Sequence record: OL631482.1
DNA: 64,000 nucleotides
Source: Escherichia phage ECML-359
Reading direction: 5' to 3' (one strand)
The first letter of the stretch is position 1. Each line of letters opens with the position of its first letter. A model generated the notes under the pieces. The model made no database searches. It was not told where the DNA came from and saw nothing but the letters and a program-made list of their open reading frames with translations. The translations under genes were made by a program, and so were the position numbers. This document shows positions 25,553-33,517 of the stretch, piece after piece.

Positions 25553-25852
25553 TTAGAAAGAACCAGAACCTTTAATTGTGTTCTGGCGACCTTTATTTTC
25601 TAATTCAGAATGGTCGATTTCGTATGCTTGTGCTACACCAAAGGCCTTTTTAACTTTAGCTAAAGAACCTTTAGATGTAACAATATTAAAAGTATTGCCT
25701 TTAGTAAAATCAACCAAATCCACTTGTACACCCTGTTTACCGAGGCTTGCTACAATAGCATCAACATATTGTTGGTCTAAAGTACCTTGGACTCCAATTT
25801 GGAATGCTTTAGGGGCTTTGGCTTCTGTGATAAATTCTTGATAAGTTTTCAT
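25553..25852 (-). CDS. internal-protein-like virion protein with capsid-targeting N-terminus
   Basis: Starts MKTYQEFITEA, the T4 IP capsid-targeting sequence; early promoter cassette upstream. Confidence 0.65.
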   Translation of the reverse strand: MKTYQEFITEAKAPKAFQIGVQGTLDQQYVDAIVASLGKQGVQVDLVDFTKGNTFNIVTSKGSLAKVKKAFGVAQAYEIDHSELENKGRQNTIKGSGSF

Positions 25853-27666: not shown

Positions 27667-27895
27667 CGTCACGTTTCCATGATTGGTTAAAAATATCACT
27701 CATTAAAAATTCAAGTCTATTTTCCAATGAAGGAGATTCACTATCAGAAGTTTGAATTCTGTATTCAGAAATCGGGCGGAACATATCTAAGTCAGTTTCT
27801 AAATCATCTTTGATTTTCTCTTCTGATGTACCAGTATCATAGGAATACAGATAAGAATCACATGACTCGGATTTAATATAAATTGCAATACTCAT
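27659..27895 (-). CDS. hypothetical acidic protein (78 aa)
   Basis: ORF track; ATG overlaps upstream stop. Confidence 0.45.
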   Translation of the reverse strand: MSIAIYIKSESCDSYLYSYDTGTSEEKIKDDLETDLDMFRPISEYRIQTSDSESPSLENRLEFLMSDIFNQSWKRDDE

Positions 27896-28479
27896 TTACG
27901 GCATTCCTCAATAAAGGAGTTCAATGTATTTTTCTTAGTGATATCGTCATATACCTTTTTAACTTTAGAAATACGAAAAGGTACTTCAATAACCATAGTC
28001 CATAAAAATGATGCAATAAGCCCAGCGAGAGCAGTAGAAAAGCACGCACCCATTACAGCTACGGGTGCTTCATTTTTGCCTGTCAAGAAAAACCACAGAA
28101 ACGGTAAAAATAAGATTCCAGCCCAGGCATAAAACCTGGAACAAATTAACTTATCAAATTCATCACTCCAGGTACGAAATCCATATTTCTTGCTATAAGA
28201 AATTAATGGGTCTGGTGTCTGTTCTTTGAGCGGTTCTGGTTGATGCCCATTAATAATGTATCCCATTTTATATTCCTTAATTAAAAGCTCTTTCACATGA
28301 CGATTGCATCGCGACCAATCAACATTTTCCACCTTGATTCCTTCATCACCATCATCAAGGTTCGCCCAATATTTTTTGGTAATCATAAATTCATCTCTTG
28401 ATACAATTATACCTGCATTTTCTGCCCGGCGGATGAAGTTTACATCAACACCCATGCACCCGGGCTCATAAAGGGCCAT
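27892..28479 (-). CDS. hypothetical membrane protein (195 aa) with C-terminal FIEECRK
   Basis: Two C-terminal TM helices (FYAWAGILFLPFLWFFL, VAVMGACFSTALAGLIASFLWTMVI). Confidence 0.5.
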   Translation of the reverse strand: MALYEPGCMGVDVNFIRRAENAGIIVSRDEFMITKKYWANLDDGDEGIKVENVDWSRCNRHVKELLIKEYKMGYIINGHQPEPLKEQTPDPLISYSKKYGFRTWSDEFDKLICSRFYAWAGILFLPFLWFFLTGKNEAPVAVMGACFSTALAGLIASFLWTMVIEVPFRISKVKKVYDDITKKNTLNSFIEECRK

Positions 28480-29171
28480 TACCAGCCCTCCATAGGGAAT
28501 TCCAGATATACTTGAGCATTAACGCGGATTTCATTTGTAATCTTTTTAACACGGTCAGTATTACGAGACACACGACCAAACCAGCGCCACCCGTTACTTA
28601 CTGCGCGAGAACCTGTATGCCATGTCTGCCAATCAAACTGGAGCAATGTGCGGTCAGGAGCATCCCACTTGGTTAATTCATTGGACTCAATTTTTTCCAG
28701 AACTTCTTTATGCCACTGACGATAGATAAGTTCGCCTTCAGGAATCTGACTAAATTGTGCAGTTCCGGTTGCAAAATAAGTAGGACACACATCAGCGTTA
28801 ACAAGACCAAGAATATGTTCAGAATGGTAACGAGGATTATCATAATCAGGTTGCCCTGCGGTAATAAAGTGTTGACCCACCGGAATATCCGGACGTGGTA
28901 CATCGTCATGGTGATAACCTGGGATAGCAGGATACCAACCAGGCATCAGCATATGAACCCGAGAATCAAACACCAAATTATCGGGGCCATCAGTCCATTC
29001 TTTTGGTAGGTTATCAAGAAAACTGCGCGTGATTGGACCACCATGCTCATACGCAAATTCTGGATAGCAGTTAAAGAACATTGGTTCATTTTTGATTTGG
29101 TCATTTTGTACGTTATGTGCAAAACCACCAACTGCACGAGCTTGACTATTAAAAGTTTTCGGACCGTTCAT
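28479..29171 (-). CDS. hypothetical protein with 2OG-Fe(II)-oxygenase-like motif arrangement
   Basis: YHHDD (HxD), downstream His (WHTGS) and RxS (GRVS) in the order seen in 2OG oxygenases; motif-level only. Confidence 0.5.
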   Translation of the reverse strand: MNGPKTFNSQARAVGGFAHNVQNDQIKNEPMFFNCYPEFAYEHGGPITRSFLDNLPKEWTDGPDNLVFDSRVHMLMPGWYPAIPGYHHDDVPRPDIPVGQHFITAGQPDYDNPRYHSEHILGLVNADVCPTYFATGTAQFSQIPEGELIYRQWHKEVLEKIESNELTKWDAPDRTLLQFDWQTWHTGSRAVSNGWRWFGRVSRNTDRVKKITNEIRVNAQVYLEFPMEGW

Positions 29172-29230
29172 AATATTTTCCTCATTGATTGTGGGACCAT
29201 TGTGTCATAGTCCCACTTGGATGTACACAA

Positions 29231-30190
29231 TTATTTTTCGAAAGGACGAATTAAATGCTGGTTAGCTTTGAAACGTTTAACATAGTCTTCATGACCCAGG
29301 GTGTTGTACATATTAACCACTTCCTGGTAATGTTCCCAGGCATACTCGCGGAACCATCCAGAAGTAATGGAGGTGCAGACTTTTTCCAGCGCAATATTGA
29401 AGCTCACGGATGGAGAGATATTGAACTCATTGGGAACCTGCGAACGCTCCAGAGCGAGTACACATGCTTCTTCATAAACCCCTGCCAGTTTAATAATCTC
29501 AGGGAGTGCTTCAAATTTTTCACGCGAGGTCATAACTTCTGAATCATCCTTCATATAGAACTTATATGCAGGCTTATCAGCAAGCGCCACGGCCTCGTGG
29601 ATGGAGTCATGGTCAAGGGTATAGATTGTATCATTAAAGAAAGTTTTCTTGCCCACGTCTAGTTTAGGGTGACTATATGACAATGTTTCTGCCTGGCGCT
29701 GCAGCATGATTTTATGCAGTTCGTCATTAAGAACAACACCCTTATTGCGAAGGTAATTAATATGACTCATTGTCTTCAGGAAGAATGGATTGTTCTTCAG
29801 GTAACGATGAGACAGTTTAATTGCCAGACAAATATCAGGAGTCGCCCAATAGAAACCTGTAAGACGGTCTTTCTTAATATGATTTTCAGCGTATTTCAAG
29901 AGACGATAACTTGAGGTGAAATCTTCATCTTGAAGCTCACCAGTAATTTCTCGTACGTTAGTCAGGGCACGGACAATATAAGCTTCAAAATAGGTTTCTT
30001 TTCCATTGTACATACATTTAAAAGCTTGGACATCAGGGTTATCCACAGGAACATGAGCACCGAACATACGTGCTTTAAAGTGGTTCCAGGAGCCCTGGTC
30101 AGCGATAAAGTCCCAATCAGAGTTTTCAATTTTCTGACTTTCAATCAGACCAGCGTTATGTAATGCACGAGAACCAATAACTAACATCAT
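29231..30190 (-). CDS. hypothetical protein (319 aa)
   Basis: ORF track; no motif recognised. Confidence 0.55.
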   Translation of the reverse strand: MMLVIGSRALHNAGLIESQKIENSDWDFIADQGSWNHFKARMFGAHVPVDNPDVQAFKCMYNGKETYFEAYIVRALTNVREITGELQDEDFTSSYRLLKYAENHIKKDRLTGFYWATPDICLAIKLSHRYLKNNPFFLKTMSHINYLRNKGVVLNDELHKIMLQRQAETLSYSHPKLDVGKKTFFNDTIYTLDHDSIHEAVALADKPAYKFYMKDDSEVMTSREKFEALPEIIKLAGVYEEACVLALERSQVPNEFNISPSVSFNIALEKVCTSITSGWFREYAWEHYQEVVNMYNTLGHEDYVKRFKANQHLIRPFEK

Positions 30191-30206
30191 AATATTTTCC
30201 TCATTA

Positions 30207-30374
30207 GTAAAGACGAGTTACTTCATATTTTCCAAGTGCCGATTTTTTCGCTTCAATTCGTGAGGCAGCAAGATTGGCGGCCTCTAGTGAAGAAAATTGA
30301 ACCACTTGAGAAGTATTCTGTCTTACTCCACCTTGCGGGTGAGTGACAAAAACAATAAGAACATTATACATAAT
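30207..30374 (-). CDS. hypothetical small protein (55 aa)
   Basis: Own translation MYNVLIVFVTHPQGG...; not in track. Confidence 0.3.
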
Positions 30375-30381
30375 ATTTTCC

Positions 30382-30582
30382 TCAAATAATACCGTATGCG
30401 TAAATATCTCTTTTAATGCAGGAAACTACTTCTTCCAAAGAATCACAAACACGTTCTGTGGCGCCTGCGTAATCACCACTGATGGTTACTTTAATACCAT
30501 CAGAAACTTCCTGGAGATTAACCTCCAGTTGGTTGACTTTGGCTTCGTTCAGAACTTTGATTAATTCGTTTGCGATAGACAT
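30382..30582 (-). CDS. hypothetical protein (66 aa)
   Basis: ORF track. Confidence 0.45.
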   Translation of the reverse strand: MSIANELIKVLNEAKVNQLEVNLQEVSDGIKVTISGDYAGATERVCDSLEEVVSCIKRDIYAYGII

Positions 30583-30646
30583 TTTTATTCTCCTGTTCTG
30601 ATAACGCGATTGTCATCAGTTGATAGGAGTATAGTAACACAGTTTT

Positions 30647-30991
30647 TTAGACTTGTATACTGCTTCTACAATATTCTAAAAATAATTTATCGTTGTCTAC
30701 CTTATCCCAACGACGCCAAGATGGATTCCAGACCAGAGCGTTGTCACCGCAATCATTGAGCTTAAAGTGGTCGTAGTACATAGCTATATGTCTGGTTTCG
30801 TCACCAGAGAACCCCAGTATATGCTCACCGTGGGTATGATACATATGATGATGCATTGAGAGGTCGCATTTGTAAAACATCTCACGTTTACCACGAACGA
30901 ACAAGAAGGCTTGCCCATTCATATAGAATTCTTTATCTGTTTTCAAAAGATATTTGAATACCGAATCTTTATGCATAATTCCTCCTACCAC
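30647..30991 (-). CDS. hypothetical His-rich protein
   Basis: HHHMYHTHGEH cluster; start probably at MHKDSVF. Confidence 0.5.
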   Translation of the reverse strand: MVGGIMHKDSVFKYLLKTDKEFYMNGQAFLFVRGKREMFYKCDLSMHHHMYHTHGEHILGFSGDETRHIAMYYDHFKLNDCGDNALVWNPSWRRWDKVDNDKLFLEYCRSSIQV

Positions 30992-31006
30992 ATCCTTGTG
31001 ATTAAA

Positions 31007-31234
31007 TTATTTTCCTAACGAAATACGAGTAGGTTTTTTACCGAAATATTCTTCATAGGAACCATCTAAACGACCCGCTTTAGACCGACAATACGAATCA
31101 TACTTTTTGTAATAAGTCAACTCGTTATTATAACGTGGATGTCTATCAGCCATAATAATACTTAATGGCCAACCTTTGGCATAATCACGAAGACCATTTA
31201 TTTTACGAATATATCTTTTCTTTAATTTTAGCAT
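31007..31234 (-). CDS. hypothetical basic protein (75 aa)
   Basis: ORF track. Confidence 0.45.
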   Translation of the reverse strand: MLKLKKRYIRKINGLRDYAKGWPLSIIMADRHPRYNNELTYYKKYDSYCRSKAGRLDGSYEEYFGKKPTRISLGK

Positions 31235-31452
31235 GAGCTCGGGTGCCAGATTTTACCGTCAGGTTGAGCAACGAAGGTACGACCAGCTTCTTCACCATAA
31301 CAAGAGCTGTTCAGCCAGTCTTCAAGACGAACCTCACCATCATATTCGTCAAGCTCAATACCGAAATCTTGAGCGTTAGCCATATCTTTTACTTTCTTAT
31401 ACAATGCAGCCAGTTCAAGTGCTGCTTTTTCTAATTCATTAATATCAGACAT
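31228..31452 (-). CDS. small protein, member of C-terminal-Cys paralog family (ends WHPSSC)
   Basis: Fourth of four tandem small ORFs ending in SS..C-stop. Confidence 0.5.
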   Translation of the reverse strand: MSDINELEKAALELAALYKKVKDMANAQDFGIELDEYDGEVRLEDWLNSSCYGEEAGRTFVAQPDGKIWHPSSC

Positions 31453-31461
31453 TTTTATTCC

Positions 31462-31659
31462 TTAGCATTCGTAAGAGGATGATACCCAAGAGGTACCACT
31501 AATAGTAATACAACCGTTATAAAGCGTGATATGTCGTTCTAAGTCACGAACACCATCAATGTAGATATCAGCTTCTTCGCGTTCTTCTTTACAAATCTGG
31601 ATAACGTTTTCAATAGCTGCCGCGGCAGTACGGATTGCACAATCTAATTCACGAGACAT
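31462..31659 (-). CDS. small protein, C-terminal-Cys paralog family (ends WVSSSYEC)
   Basis: Start moved to MSRELD with TAAGGA SD from upstream stop junction. Confidence 0.5.
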   Translation of the reverse strand: MSRELDCAIRTAAAAIENVIQICKEEREEADIYIDGVRDLERHITLYNGCITISGTSWVSSSYEC

Positions 31660-31667
31660 ATAATTCC

Positions 31668-31949
31668 TTAACATTCAGAAGAGGAGGACACCCAACCGCC
31701 ATTTTCCAGGTCAGTTGTATAGTCATGAGTGTTAACAATAGCCCATTCAGGATGACCATGTTCTTCCCAATGAGCAAGGTCAGCTTTCAAGGCGCCAGGA
31801 GAATAATAGTCACCGCCCATACCGCGAGCAGGGTATATATTAAAATGAGTCTCATATTTGTTTGCGATTTCCTCGGCACGACGAATAGCTTTATGGATAT
31901 CATTTACTGCGTTAGCCAGTTCTTTATTTTTACGGTAATCATTCATCAT
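31668..31949 (-). CDS. small protein, C-terminal-Cys paralog family (ends GGWVSSSSEC)
   Basis: Shares helix AIxx(A/S)EEIA..Y and G(G/A)WVSSS with neighbours. Confidence 0.5.
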   Translation of the reverse strand: MMNDYRKNKELANAVNDIHKAIRRAEEIANKYETHFNIYPARGMGGDYYSPGALKADLAHWEEHGHPEWAIVNTHDYTTDLENGGWVSSSSEC

Positions 31950-31958
31950 AGCGTTTCC

Positions 31959-32249
31959 TTAGCACATTGCCGAAGAGGAGACCCAAGCACCAACTGTAAC
32001 GACACCGTTTTCAACTTCGCCGCCGTTGTTTTCAATTTCATCTTTAAACCACTGGGAGCACTCATAACCGACAGGATAATATGTACGGCCTGAACCATAA
32101 TCACCGGTACCGAATTGGATACCATATTCATCTGCGATTTCTTCACAGTGTTTTTCAATTTCAGAGGTCTTATTTAGAAGAGAATAGATAGCTTTTTCTG
32201 CAGATTTCTCATCATAATACTTGGGGATAGCAATTTCAATTTTATTCAT
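31959..32249 (-). CDS. small protein, C-terminal-Cys paralog family (ends GAWVSSSAMC)
   Basis: First of the tandem array; ATG overlaps upstream stop. Confidence 0.5.
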   Translation of the reverse strand: MNKIEIAIPKYYDEKSAEKAIYSLLNKTSEIEKHCEEIADEYGIQFGTGDYGSGRTYYPVGYECSQWFKDEIENNGGEVENGVVTVGAWVSSSAMC

Positions 32250-32599
32250 GATTTACATTCCTTAATAAAGGTTTCAAGGTCATTACGTTTTGTTTTGTCT
32301 AGGAACTTATTATACTCAGCCATTGCTGAAGCGTATCTCTTCCGACTAGGAGCATTCAAGGCATTTGTGTGACAGATATCATACACAACAGGGATAAAAT
32401 AAGCCACAACAGCCGGAGCGATTATCATAAAGAAGCCCATCTCAATAGGCATGACTCCCTCGATTGCAGCCATAACCGTGGTCATTACCAGACCAACCAA
32501 ACCACCAAGCATACCGGTAGCAATCCCTAATAATAAATTGGCACCAATATCATATTCAGCCAATTGATAAACATGTGATGCAAGACTAGGCCGTTCCAT
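32246..32599 (-). CDS. hypothetical membrane protein with C-terminal FIKECKS
   Basis: Start trimmed to MERPSLAS; two TM helices. Confidence 0.45.
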   Translation of the reverse strand: MERPSLASHVYQLAEYDIGANLLLGIATGMLGGLVGLVMTTVMAAIEGVMPIEMGFFMIIAPAVVAYFIPVVYDICHTNALNAPSRKRYASAMAEYNKFLDKTKRNDLETFIKECKS

Positions 32600-32981
32600 T
32601 ACGAACCTCCTTAATAAATTCTTCGGCACATTTAATTTTGTGCTCTTCTTGTAGGGAAACACATTTTTGTTCCCACTCTTTAACTCGTCCACGATATCCT
32701 TTATTCATATGATTTTGATGCCACACATTTATCAAAATCATACTCAGGACTGTAATAAAAGGAGCTGCAATTATTAGTGCCCAGGCGACTCCAACACTAA
32801 TGATACCCATATCTCCACAAACAACCATCATTATAACCCCAACGATGCACATGGACAGCGCCCCAAATGGAGGCATAAGGTCTTTATCAATCTTGTCTGC
32901 ATATACAAATTTTTCTGGTTTACTTGGCAGATATAGCGTTCGCATTTTGAACCCCTTTAGCATATTCACGACATTCAGCAA
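32586..32981 (-). CDS. hypothetical membrane protein with C-terminal FIKEV
   Basis: ORF track; TM helices; start may be internal MRTLYL. Confidence 0.45.
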   Translation of the reverse strand: MLNVVNMLKGFKMRTLYLPSKPEKFVYADKIDKDLMPPFGALSMCIVGVIMMVVCGDMGIISVGVAWALIIAAPFITVLSMILINVWHQNHMNKGYRGRVKEWEQKCVSLQEEHKIKCAEEFIKEVRNGTA

Positions 32982-33492
32982 TAAAACGATTAAGTTTACG
33001 TTTCCGTTTACGACTTTCTAATGTGTACTCAGCCGCCAAATCAAGAAGCTCATCTTTATCATAATTTTTAATATCCGTATAAGCGGGACGACGGTCAACC
33101 ATTCCAAAGTGGTCACCATTTTCTAACATCAAATAACACACCAAATGGTCATCATCGTCCGCATTAGTAAGCTGTTTATAATCACTTGGTTCGTTTAAAG
33201 CATATACTGAATAACGTAGTCCAGCGAATTCCACTCGTTGAATACCCAGATTTACATCAATAATTTCCAAGGCATCTGCGAAAGAAAGGTCTTCAGCTAA
33301 AGCAAAAATAAAAGGCAATTTGGTAGTATCGCCGCGACTTGTTGTTCTTCTTAAGAAATCATTGGAATAGCCCAAGTCGCGGCGGATTCTATAAAGAACT
33401 GTGTTAGTTTCAGTGGCAAGACCACTACCGCCAAACCATTCCACATTTGATAAAAGATTATCATATAAAGTCATAATTTTCTCCTCTCCCAA
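32920..33492 (-). CDS. hypothetical protein (190 aa) with C-terminal FIAECRE
   Basis: ORF track; promoter/terminator hairpin upstream. Confidence 0.5.
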   Translation of the reverse strand: MGEEKIMTLYDNLLSNVEWFGGSGLATETNTVLYRIRRDLGYSNDFLRRTTSRGDTTKLPFIFALAEDLSFADALEIIDVNLGIQRVEFAGLRYSVYALNEPSDYKQLTNADDDDHLVCYLMLENGDHFGMVDRRPAYTDIKNYDKDELLDLAAEYTLESRKRKRKLNRFIAECREYAKGVQNANAISAK

Positions 33493-33496
33493 TTAA

Positions 33497-33511
33497 GGGG
33501 GCTTTGCCCCC
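33497..33511. terminator. GC-rich hairpin GGGGGctttGCCCCC, possible bidirectional terminator
   Basis: Perfect 5-bp GC stem with T-rich flank on plus. Confidence 0.45.
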
Positions 33512-33517
33512 TTTATC

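Follow-up and report, generated by a model that had tools for sequence, protein, structure and literature searches.

A conserved C-terminal peptide motif with a Shine-Dalgarno overlay in the e.2–e.5 proteins of T4-type phages

The window analyzed here, a 64,000-nucleotide (nt) stretch of Escherichia phage ECML-359 (record OL631482.1), contains several genes whose products end in the short motif FIxEC(K/R). The locus raises the question whether this motif is a peptide maintained by selection or a by-product of the DNA sequence at closely packed gene junctions. The evidence points to a peptide. Very probably, selection maintains the motif near the C termini of several different proteins whose genes lie between nudE and e.6 in T4-type phages. 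About half of the genes of T4, e.2–e.5 included, still lack a known function.

Occurrence of the motif in the window and in other phages

The four FIxEC(K/R)-type peptides listed by the first-pass annotation were confirmed, all on the minus strand (Table 1). They belong to homologues or positional counterparts of T4 e.2, e.3, e.4, and e.5. In a six-frame scan of the 64 kb (open frames of ≥50 codons), FI.EC[KR] was found three times and FI.E[CV][KR] four times, and all matches were the listed cases. For a chance estimate, residues were shuffled within each of the 123 open reading frames (ORFs) of the window, and the last 30 residues were scored. FI.EC[KR] was observed three times in the last 30 residues against 0.002 expected, and 0 of 1000 shuffles reached three, ruling out chance as the source of the motif. 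For FI.E[CV][KR], four occurrences were observed and 0.07 expected. Three of the four proteins are predicted membrane proteins, as had been noted before; in each of e.2, e.3, and e.4, two hydrophobic segments (Kyte-Doolittle) precede a tail rich in K and R.

A search across T4-type genomes, suggested earlier as a check, found the tail in T4 and in many phage genera. The T4 tails are NNFITECRKLK (e.2), KEFVIDCRKIK (e.3), KFVKESRCKSQS (e.4, including FVKESRCKSQS), and KFVKECREYVKAITIPSK (e.5, including FVKECREYVKAITIPSK); in the whole T4 genome, an equivalent C-terminal pattern was present in these four genes only. The tail also occurs in PhAPEC2 (Mosigvirus), JS98 and QL01 (Dhakavirus), Klebsiella Roth77, Kosakonia 305, Serratia X20, Enterobacter UFV01, and Aeromonas phiAS4. 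Four to six carriers were found per genome, and one in the 12.5 kb examined of Aeromonas phiAS4. Two-helix proteins resembling RB69 ORF133c and several small soluble proteins are further carriers. Soluble proteins of Kosakonia (FIQMCRGK) and Klebsiella (FIAKCRAK) phages have endings like that of the window ORF at 30647..30976, which is probably the fifth tail carrier in the window.

The peptide core can be written as hydrophobic(-3)-x-x-[F/W]-[I/V]-x-x-C-R and lies 0–20 residues from the C terminus. The consensus of 38 nonredundant tails was L/I/F (-3), E/N/D (-2), x, F (0), I/V (+1), K (+2), E (+3), C (+4), R (+5), and K (+6). A profile of the e.2 family, searched against 1.84 billion representative proteins, matched 19 clusters only, and 14 of the 14 sequences retrieved end in [F/W]-I-x-x-C-R-[K/N]. 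With a 27-residue tail as the query, tblastn gave matches in T4-type phages only. A scan of viral contigs from the tail alignment returned 502 raw stretches, with two close relatives confirmed, and was uninformative on other phage groups. No match for e.2–e.5 was obtained in a local Pfam copy (without PF26896 and PF26873), NCBIfam, PADLOC, or PDB sequences; precomputed Pfam accessions place PF26896 on e.2 and PF26873 on e.4. Literature searches under the gene names, the motif, and these two accessions found nothing relevant. The motif, located at the C termini of T4 e.2–e.5 and of neighboring proteins, is real, conserved, and apparently undescribed.

Conservation at the peptide level

In codon alignments of the families, the amino acid divergence of the six motif codons was 0.09–0.15, compared with 0.37–0.41 for the rest of e.2–e.4. 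Synonymous diversity was judged against conserved Cys and Arg columns elsewhere as the background. At the motif Cys it was 0.15–0.44 (0.49 elsewhere) and at the motif Arg 0.29–0.56 (0.33 elsewhere), which is the background rate, and the motif Arg is encoded among orthologues by CGT, CGC, CGA, AGA, and AGG. The first-pass annotation had reasoned that a motif due entirely to a junction sequence would occur at gene ends only and be as conserved at synonymous as at nonsynonymous positions. This pattern was not found, the synonymous diversity at Cys and Arg being that of the background. F, I/V, C, and R are kept in at least four protein families and at least nine genera while the codons change, and the earlier suggestion of a genuine peptide module is borne out.

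The next ATG follows the F codon at a distance of 17 to 121 nt. The Shine-Dalgarno sequence overlaps +2/+3 in some carriers and +5/+6 in others, and elsewhere it comes after the motif or is distant from it. The motif also stays on the upstream gene under a change of downstream neighbor: the gene after e.2 is nudE in T4 and a 78-amino-acid (aa) ORF in the window, and that after e.3 is e.2 in T4 and a 96-aa ORF in the window. In the e.2 family (alignment A2), the transmembrane part is mosaic, with two unrelated versions, yet the tail is invariant (F189, I190, E192, C193, R194, and K195).

The DNA identity among the tails of one genome (0.548) was comparable to that of orthologues (0.560) and of other, unrelated pairs (0.528). 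Because identity was not raised within genomes, gene conversion among the tails was rejected as the cause. A DNA repeat was likewise rejected, because the motif is absent among the repeats of the region, the strongest of which are other start-codon regions, e.g., AATGAGGAAAATATTATGA, with three copies. The earlier proposal that the motif originated as the footprint of a recombination junction therefore fails: tail DNA is not a notable repeat and is not homogenized within genomes. Together, the varying Cys and Arg codons, the varying distance to the next start, and the lack of homogenization refute an explanation by the DNA junction alone.

Shine-Dalgarno overlay

Part of the conservation does lie at the DNA junction, as the first-pass annotation had stated: positions +2, +3, and +6 follow the next Shine-Dalgarno sequence, and the e.3 junction is near-frozen. 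That motif codons double as a Shine-Dalgarno sequence was also correct, with three such cases (e.2, e.3, and e.4) in place of the two counted. The motif of the e.5-position gene had been taken to lie away from a junction, which is wrong here, as the T4-type e.4 ATG follows 22 nt after its F codon. Better examples of off-junction motifs are found in other phages and in ORF 30647..30976.

E at +3 was present in 12 of 16 tails with an ATG within 23 nt versus 2 of 12 with the ATG at ≥32 nt (Fisher P = 0.006), and G at +6 (CGA GGA or AGA GGA) in 4 of 9 tails with the ATG at 24–31 nt versus 1 of 28 otherwise (P = 0.008); these tests are indicative only because related sequences were treated as independent. 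The codon pairs bearing the Shine-Dalgarno sequence are K-E (AAGGAA), E-E (GAGGAA), and K-G (AAAGGA), with CGAGGA where G is at +6. When the Shine-Dalgarno sequence does not overlap, +3 is Y, M, Q, K, G, or D. At the T4-type e.4 ATG of the window, the Shine-Dalgarno sequence has been lost (GCTGAA), and a second e.4 ATG 18 nt further on, with AAAGGGG before it, is the start annotated in SP18.

The ribosome-binding site falls in the same codons because the genes are packed with overlapping stops and starts. Such overlaps place the ribosome-binding site of the next gene within the motif codons and thereby set the "free" residues of the motif (K/E at +2 and E at +3, or G at +6). In FIxEC(K/R), F, I, C, and R thus form the peptide core, and x and E belong to a Shine-Dalgarno overlay; E owes its presence mainly to the ribosome-binding site. 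That a peptide motif and a ribosome-binding site can occupy the same codons matters for the reading of conservation at overlapping gene boundaries and for the recoding of phage genomes.

Relationships among the carriers

The carriers had been described as otherwise different proteins, which needs correction, since they form the syntenic T4 e.2–e.5 block and since e.3 and e.4 remain paralogous after removal of the tail (hhalign, 89% versus 1.7% for the reversed control). The C-terminal half of e.2 matched e.3 at 95% with the tail and at 33% without it, against 26% for the reversed control. The e.5-like protein of the window aligned with T4 e.5 over 15 tail residues only; it would be linked to T4 e.5 only indirectly, through the e.5-position proteins of Klebsiella and Kosakonia phages (hhalign, 79.5%), which in turn match T4 e.5 (92%). 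Judged by these alignments, at least three or four unrelated bodies carry the tail.

Direct matches to T4 were obtained for the other three genes. For e.2, tblastn gave about 32% identity over residues 32-195, with E values down to 2e-19. In a small local database, blastp matched e.3 to T4 e.3 (E = 4e-7) and to PhAPEC2 e.3 (E = 3e-9), and e.4 matched T4 e.4 by tblastn (E = 1e-5). The block of the window differs from that of T4 in an e.5-position protein so diverged that the tail alone aligns directly, and the T4 reference e.2 is broken by frameshifts. The latter gene (locus L010, 5440..5961) is annotated with 102 aa, compared with 162 aa for an intact homologue (P0067), and the sequence for its second transmembrane helix and tail (…FIEMPWRLRRQQKIFDEKKYAQNLNNFITECRKLK) lies further downstream in different frames. 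This indicates two frameshifts relative to P0067 and either a pseudogene or an old sequencing error.

The e.2 protein belongs to phrog_2203 of PHROG (E = 4e-65) and was found by tblastn in 665 phage records, including Tequatrovirus e.2. An AlphaFold2 model (predicted local distance difference test [pLDDT] score of 57), used for helix topology only, showed a helical hairpin with helices at residues 105-133 and 140-194. The second helix continues into the tail, with a pLDDT of 60–80 that drops to about 50 at the end. In alignment A2, the N-terminal domain (W..LDDGD.GI…VDW..C) is conserved together with the tail, and the two unrelated transmembrane versions (columns ~108-190) circulate among otherwise close phages. 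In a further protein of the representative library (P0070, 106 aa), an e.4 N terminus (MSKPSLYLPSEPVKYELKRQLIPTDVLIGPV) is naturally fused to the second helix and tail of e.2, indicating that the two-helix proteins are able to recombine into each other.

Gene block and neighboring features

The region is that of a Gaprivervirus, an SP18-like T4 relative (Escherichia phage EAWsc9, 96%; Shigella phage SP18, 92%). The genes of this region are all on the minus strand, and the T4 order is denV–e–nudE–e.2…e.6. According to the annotations of SP18, EAWsc9, T4, JS98, and PhAPEC2, e.2–e.5 lie between nudE and e.6 with the T4 strand and order kept. The four genes are contiguous in T4; about 3.7 kb of extra genes (28479..32246) split e.2 from e.3 in the window, and the same is found in JS98-, RB69-, and Kosakonia-type phages. 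The first-pass starts of the e.4 and e.5-like ORFs were upstream TTG codons and are replaced in Table 1 by the ATG codons annotated in relatives (32945 or 32963 for e.4 and 33474 for the e.5-like gene). The e.4 start is either ATG 32963 (T4-type, 125 aa) or ATG 32945 (119 aa), and homologues are annotated at both lengths. The e.5-like gene was found in 82 phage records and has the same position as T4 e.5; in its product, NRFIAECRE stands 15 residues ahead of the stop.

Table 1. Coordinates of the tail carriers, their motif codons, and associated junction features in the window
Feature	Position	Strand	Description
e.2 homologue	27892..28479	-	195 aa; cytoplasmic N-terminal domain, two transmembrane helices, basic tail; ends NSFIEECRK
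e.2 motif codons	27898..27915	-	TTT ATT GAG GAA TGC CGT (FIEECR)
e.2 GAGGAA	27904..27909	-	Shine-Dalgarno sequence for ATG 27895..27893 of the next gene
JS98 gp124-like ORF (probable fifth member)	30647..30976	-	109 aa, soluble; ends KLFLEYCRSSIQV (…FLEYCRSSIQV)
Fifth-member motif codons	30665..30682	-	Next gene start 100 nt past the F codon
e.3 homologue	32246..32599	-	117 aa; two transmembrane helices, basic tail; ends ETFIKECKS; phrog_2330
e.3 motif codons	32252..32269	-	TTT ATT AAG GAA TGT AAA (FIKECK)
e.3 AAGGAA	32258..32263	-	Shine-Dalgarno sequence for ATG 32249..32247
e.4 homologue	32586..32963 or ..32945	-	Two transmembrane helices; tail ends EEFIKEVRNGTA; phrog_2604
e.4 motif codons	32601..32618	-	TTT ATT AAG GAG GTT CGT (FIKEVR, Val for Cys)
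e.4 AAGGAGG	32606..32612	-	Shine-Dalgarno sequence for e.3 ATG 32599..32597
e.5-position gene (JS98 gp131-like)	32920..33474	-	184 aa, soluble; ends KLNRFIAECREYAKGVQNANAISAK; phrog_8788
e.5 motif codons	32968..32985	-	TTT ATT GCT GAA TGT CGT (FIAECR); Shine-Dalgarno sequence not inside
T4-type e.4 ATG	32963..32961	-	In the E-Y codons of e.5, 22 nt past the F codon
Direct-repeat copy 1	32943..32961	-	GCTAAAGGGGTTCAAAATG; start-codon region, upstream flank of e.4
Direct-repeat copy 2	32597..32615	-	ATTAAGGAGGTTCGTAATG; e.4 tail/e.3 start

A real recombination footprint exists beside the motif, at the start-codon regions flanking e.4. The two repeat copies there are imperfect, with 13 of 17 central bases in common. 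JS98-type phages lack e.4 exactly from the e.4 ATG to the e.3 ATG, and JS98 gp131 ends in a hybrid …EYAKEVQNGTA (JS98 locus L011, 7472..8014). The loss of e.4 looks like a deletion by short homology at Shine-Dalgarno-plus-ATG sequences.

Several other features were observed in the region. Four tandem small paralogues (74, 70, 93, and 96 aa), similar to RB69 ORF136c-139c, are located at 31228..32249 (minus strand), and the 96-aa one matches phrog_899. Each has W-x-[S/P]-S-S-x(0-3)-Cys directly before the stop (WHPSSC, WVSSSYEC, WVSSSSEC, and WVSSSAMC), and the same endings are seen in Dhakavirus, Mosigvirus, Kosakonia, Serratia, and Enterobacter phages. For at least two of these genes, the stop TAA together with GGA supplies the Shine-Dalgarno sequence of the next gene. 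These paralogues are near a 230-aa gene and a 319-aa DUF7275/DUF7277 gene. The 19-nt start-codon region AATGAGGAAAATATTATGA (gene strand) stands ahead of three genes (29168..29186, 30187..30205, and 30368..30386); two copies are identical and the third is 84% identical, making it a stronger junction repeat at the DNA level than any at the FIxEC tails. A strong GC-rich hairpin (AAGGGGGCTTTGCCCCCTT) is located at 33495..33513 between e.6 and the e.5-like gene, and a terminator is annotated at the same place in the PhAPEC2 record. The genes from e.5 to e.2 may therefore be transcriptionally separate from e.6.

Possible function and alternative explanations

In two-helix inner-membrane proteins (e.2, e.3, e.4, RB69 ORF133c-like proteins, and others), the motif is located on the basic cytoplasmic tail, and it also ends soluble proteins (the e.5 family and gp124-like proteins). 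The positive-inside rule is established for bacterial inner-membrane proteins, and by this rule the K- and R-rich tails of e.2, e.3, and e.4 are placed in the cytoplasm. The hydrophobic positions -3, 0, +1, and +4 have i, i+3, i+4, i+7 spacing, with the invariant Arg adjacent, from which one face of a short amphipathic helix is inferred. Such a cytoplasmic helix would dock its carriers to one common partner, of the host or of the phage, or to each other, and docking would tether the e.5-type soluble proteins and the e.2 N-terminal domain to a membrane-embedded set of small proteins. As a common selected tail suggests, the e.2–e.5 proteins probably have a common partner or act together. As far as sequence can tell, the "interaction tag" mentioned in the first-pass annotation remains the best reading of the tail. 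Docking as the actual function is proposed tentatively and may well prove incorrect. The explanation as a whole, a selected C-terminal peptide with a Shine-Dalgarno overlay and an inferred docking helix, is favored with some confidence. The gene e.6 was considered as a PspA-like partner and rejected: Pfam gave no PspA_IM30 match, phmmer against PDB gave none, and hhalign against E. coli PspA (a sequence entered by hand) gave a probability of 0.7%.

Several points weigh against this explanation. The 38 tails were gathered by a regular expression, so that columns 0, +1, +4, and +5 are circular in this set. Columns -3 (hydrophobic in 76%) and -2 (acidic in 58%) were not used for gathering and are therefore independent evidence. 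In e.4 and two other families, V, I, or S takes the place of Cys, which is hence dispensable in some carriers. Ile is encoded by ATT throughout (synonymous diversity of 0 versus 0.28), and the e.3 junction is near-frozen at synonymous sites (0.03 versus 0.25), indicating that some constraint at the DNA level extends into the core. The Fisher tests above carry the limit given with them. The AlphaFold2 model of the e.5-like protein (pLDDT 39) was unusable, and the e.2 tail reached a pLDDT of 50-60.

The explanations for the origin of the motif differ in how they accommodate these observations. If the motif were purely a DNA junction (Shine-Dalgarno sequence, translational coupling, or recombination site) with the peptide as a by-product, it would be expected that three window motifs hold the Shine-Dalgarno sequence of the next gene and that the fourth lies 22 nt before an ATG. 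The tracking of the Shine-Dalgarno position by +2, +3, and +6 and the presence or absence of e.4 between repeated start-codon regions would also fit. However, Cys and Arg are invariant as residues while their codons vary at the background rate, and the Shine-Dalgarno sequence slides relative to the core. The spacing to the start is not fixed (17 to 121 nt), and the next start is ≥32 nt away in 12 of 37 distinct tails. The motif, moreover, keeps with the upstream gene in e.2 and e.3 when the downstream gene differs between T4 and the window, the DNA repeats of the region do not include it, and the tails are not homogenized within a genome. The pure-junction explanation is therefore very improbable. 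Inheritance alone would make the tail the slowest, functionless remnant of tandem duplication or fusion from one small membrane gene, its slow evolution being ascribed to the overlap with the translation start of the next gene. The paralogy of e.3 and e.4 without the tail (89%), the location of all carriers in one gene cluster, the natural fusion in P0070, and the synonymous freezing of the e.3 junction and the Ile codon speak for it. On the other side, the e.2 transmembrane region and the e.5 body have no homology to e.3/e.4 beyond the tail, and the soluble carriers differ in fold class from the membrane carriers. The core also persists without an overlapping start codon (offsets of 32-121 nt) and through complete switches of Arg codon family, and the e.2 tail is invariant beside a mosaic transmembrane part. 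A functionless remnant is thus considered improbable.

Among the functional proposals, a C-terminal signal would set stability or location through a protease, a membrane-insertion or quality-control factor, or an enzyme modifying Cys-Arg. The strictly C-terminal position in every carrier (0-20 residues from the end), the near-invariant Arg (37/38) and common Cys (31/38), and the presence on membrane and soluble proteins alike would suit such a signal. However, Cys gives way to V, I, or S in whole families, and the tail is not known to resemble any C-terminal degron described in E. coli, among them the ssrA and MuA-type tags; a signal of this kind has little likelihood. Starting again from the docking helix, it can be imagined, although this is doubtful, that the tail is an address tag uniting early proteins of T4-type phages in a membrane-anchored assembly or on a common host target. 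The e.2, e.3, e.4, and ORF133c-like proteins and the soluble e.5 and gp124-like proteins would then be joined through the same C-terminal helix, and the conserved Cys-Arg might provide an intermolecular thiol or metal contact. The selected tail links four to six genes per genome that are annotated without function, from Tevenvirinae to Aeromonas phages, and it offers an experimental handle, with one bait peptide and three residues to mutate.

Comparison with known systems

The C-terminal tip of SSB and the C-terminal peptide of FtsZ are short conserved ends that follow a variable charged linker on otherwise differing proteins. The tail has no sequence similarity to either, and the likeness would be a functional analogy only.

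PeSL cassettes are reported to be intergenic DNA elements (an early promoter plus a stem-loop) that mediate modular shuffling in the hyperplastic regions of T4-type genomes (PMC2839356, PMC4122927). Compared with PeSL as described there, the locus is similar in having conserved sequence at gene boundaries within a hyperplastic region and an e.4 gene that is present or absent between repeats. It differs in that stops and starts overlap without intergenic space and that the conservation is at the amino acid level. The locus has no PeSL cassettes: promoter-like sites were not enriched (18 versus 20.5 expected), and the sole strong hairpin was that at 33495-33513.

The closest known concept is the capsid targeting sequence of T4 internal proteins, a short conserved N-terminal peptide on otherwise diverse accessory proteins (PMC3012670). 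The tails resemble it as short terminal peptides in the same genome region with a local F-I-x-E-x-R pattern; the targeting sequence reads …YQEFIAEAR. An internal head protein of the window begins with MKTYQEFITEAK (25817..25834, minus strand), a capsid targeting sequence that has an aromatic residue at -3; T4 IPII begins with MKTYQEFIAEAR. The pattern hydrophobic-x-x-F-I-x-E-x-R is common to this start and the e.5 tail LNRFIAECR, and the internal-protein genes adjoin the e.2–e.5 block. These likenesses would suit a relationship of the tail to the targeting sequence, yet one extra FI.E.[KR] match in 64 kb is within chance (about 0.5 expected, an estimate), and membrane proteins are not packageable into capsids. 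The site cleaved by gp21, (I/L)-x-E, was rejected as a conserved feature of the tails, since E is at +3 in 16 of 38 only and T4 e.3 has V-I-D. A relationship between the two is therefore exceedingly improbable. The targeting sequence stands at the N terminus, is cleaved off by gp21, contains no Cys, and occurs on soluble proteins that are packaged; the tails, in contrast, are C-terminal, all 0-20 residues from the end and none directly after the initiator Met, and their carriers are mostly membrane proteins. If the tail were indeed an address tag, the e.2–e.5 proteins and their neighbors would be a previously unrecognized functional set, and the tail would be the C-terminal counterpart of the N-terminal capsid targeting sequence.

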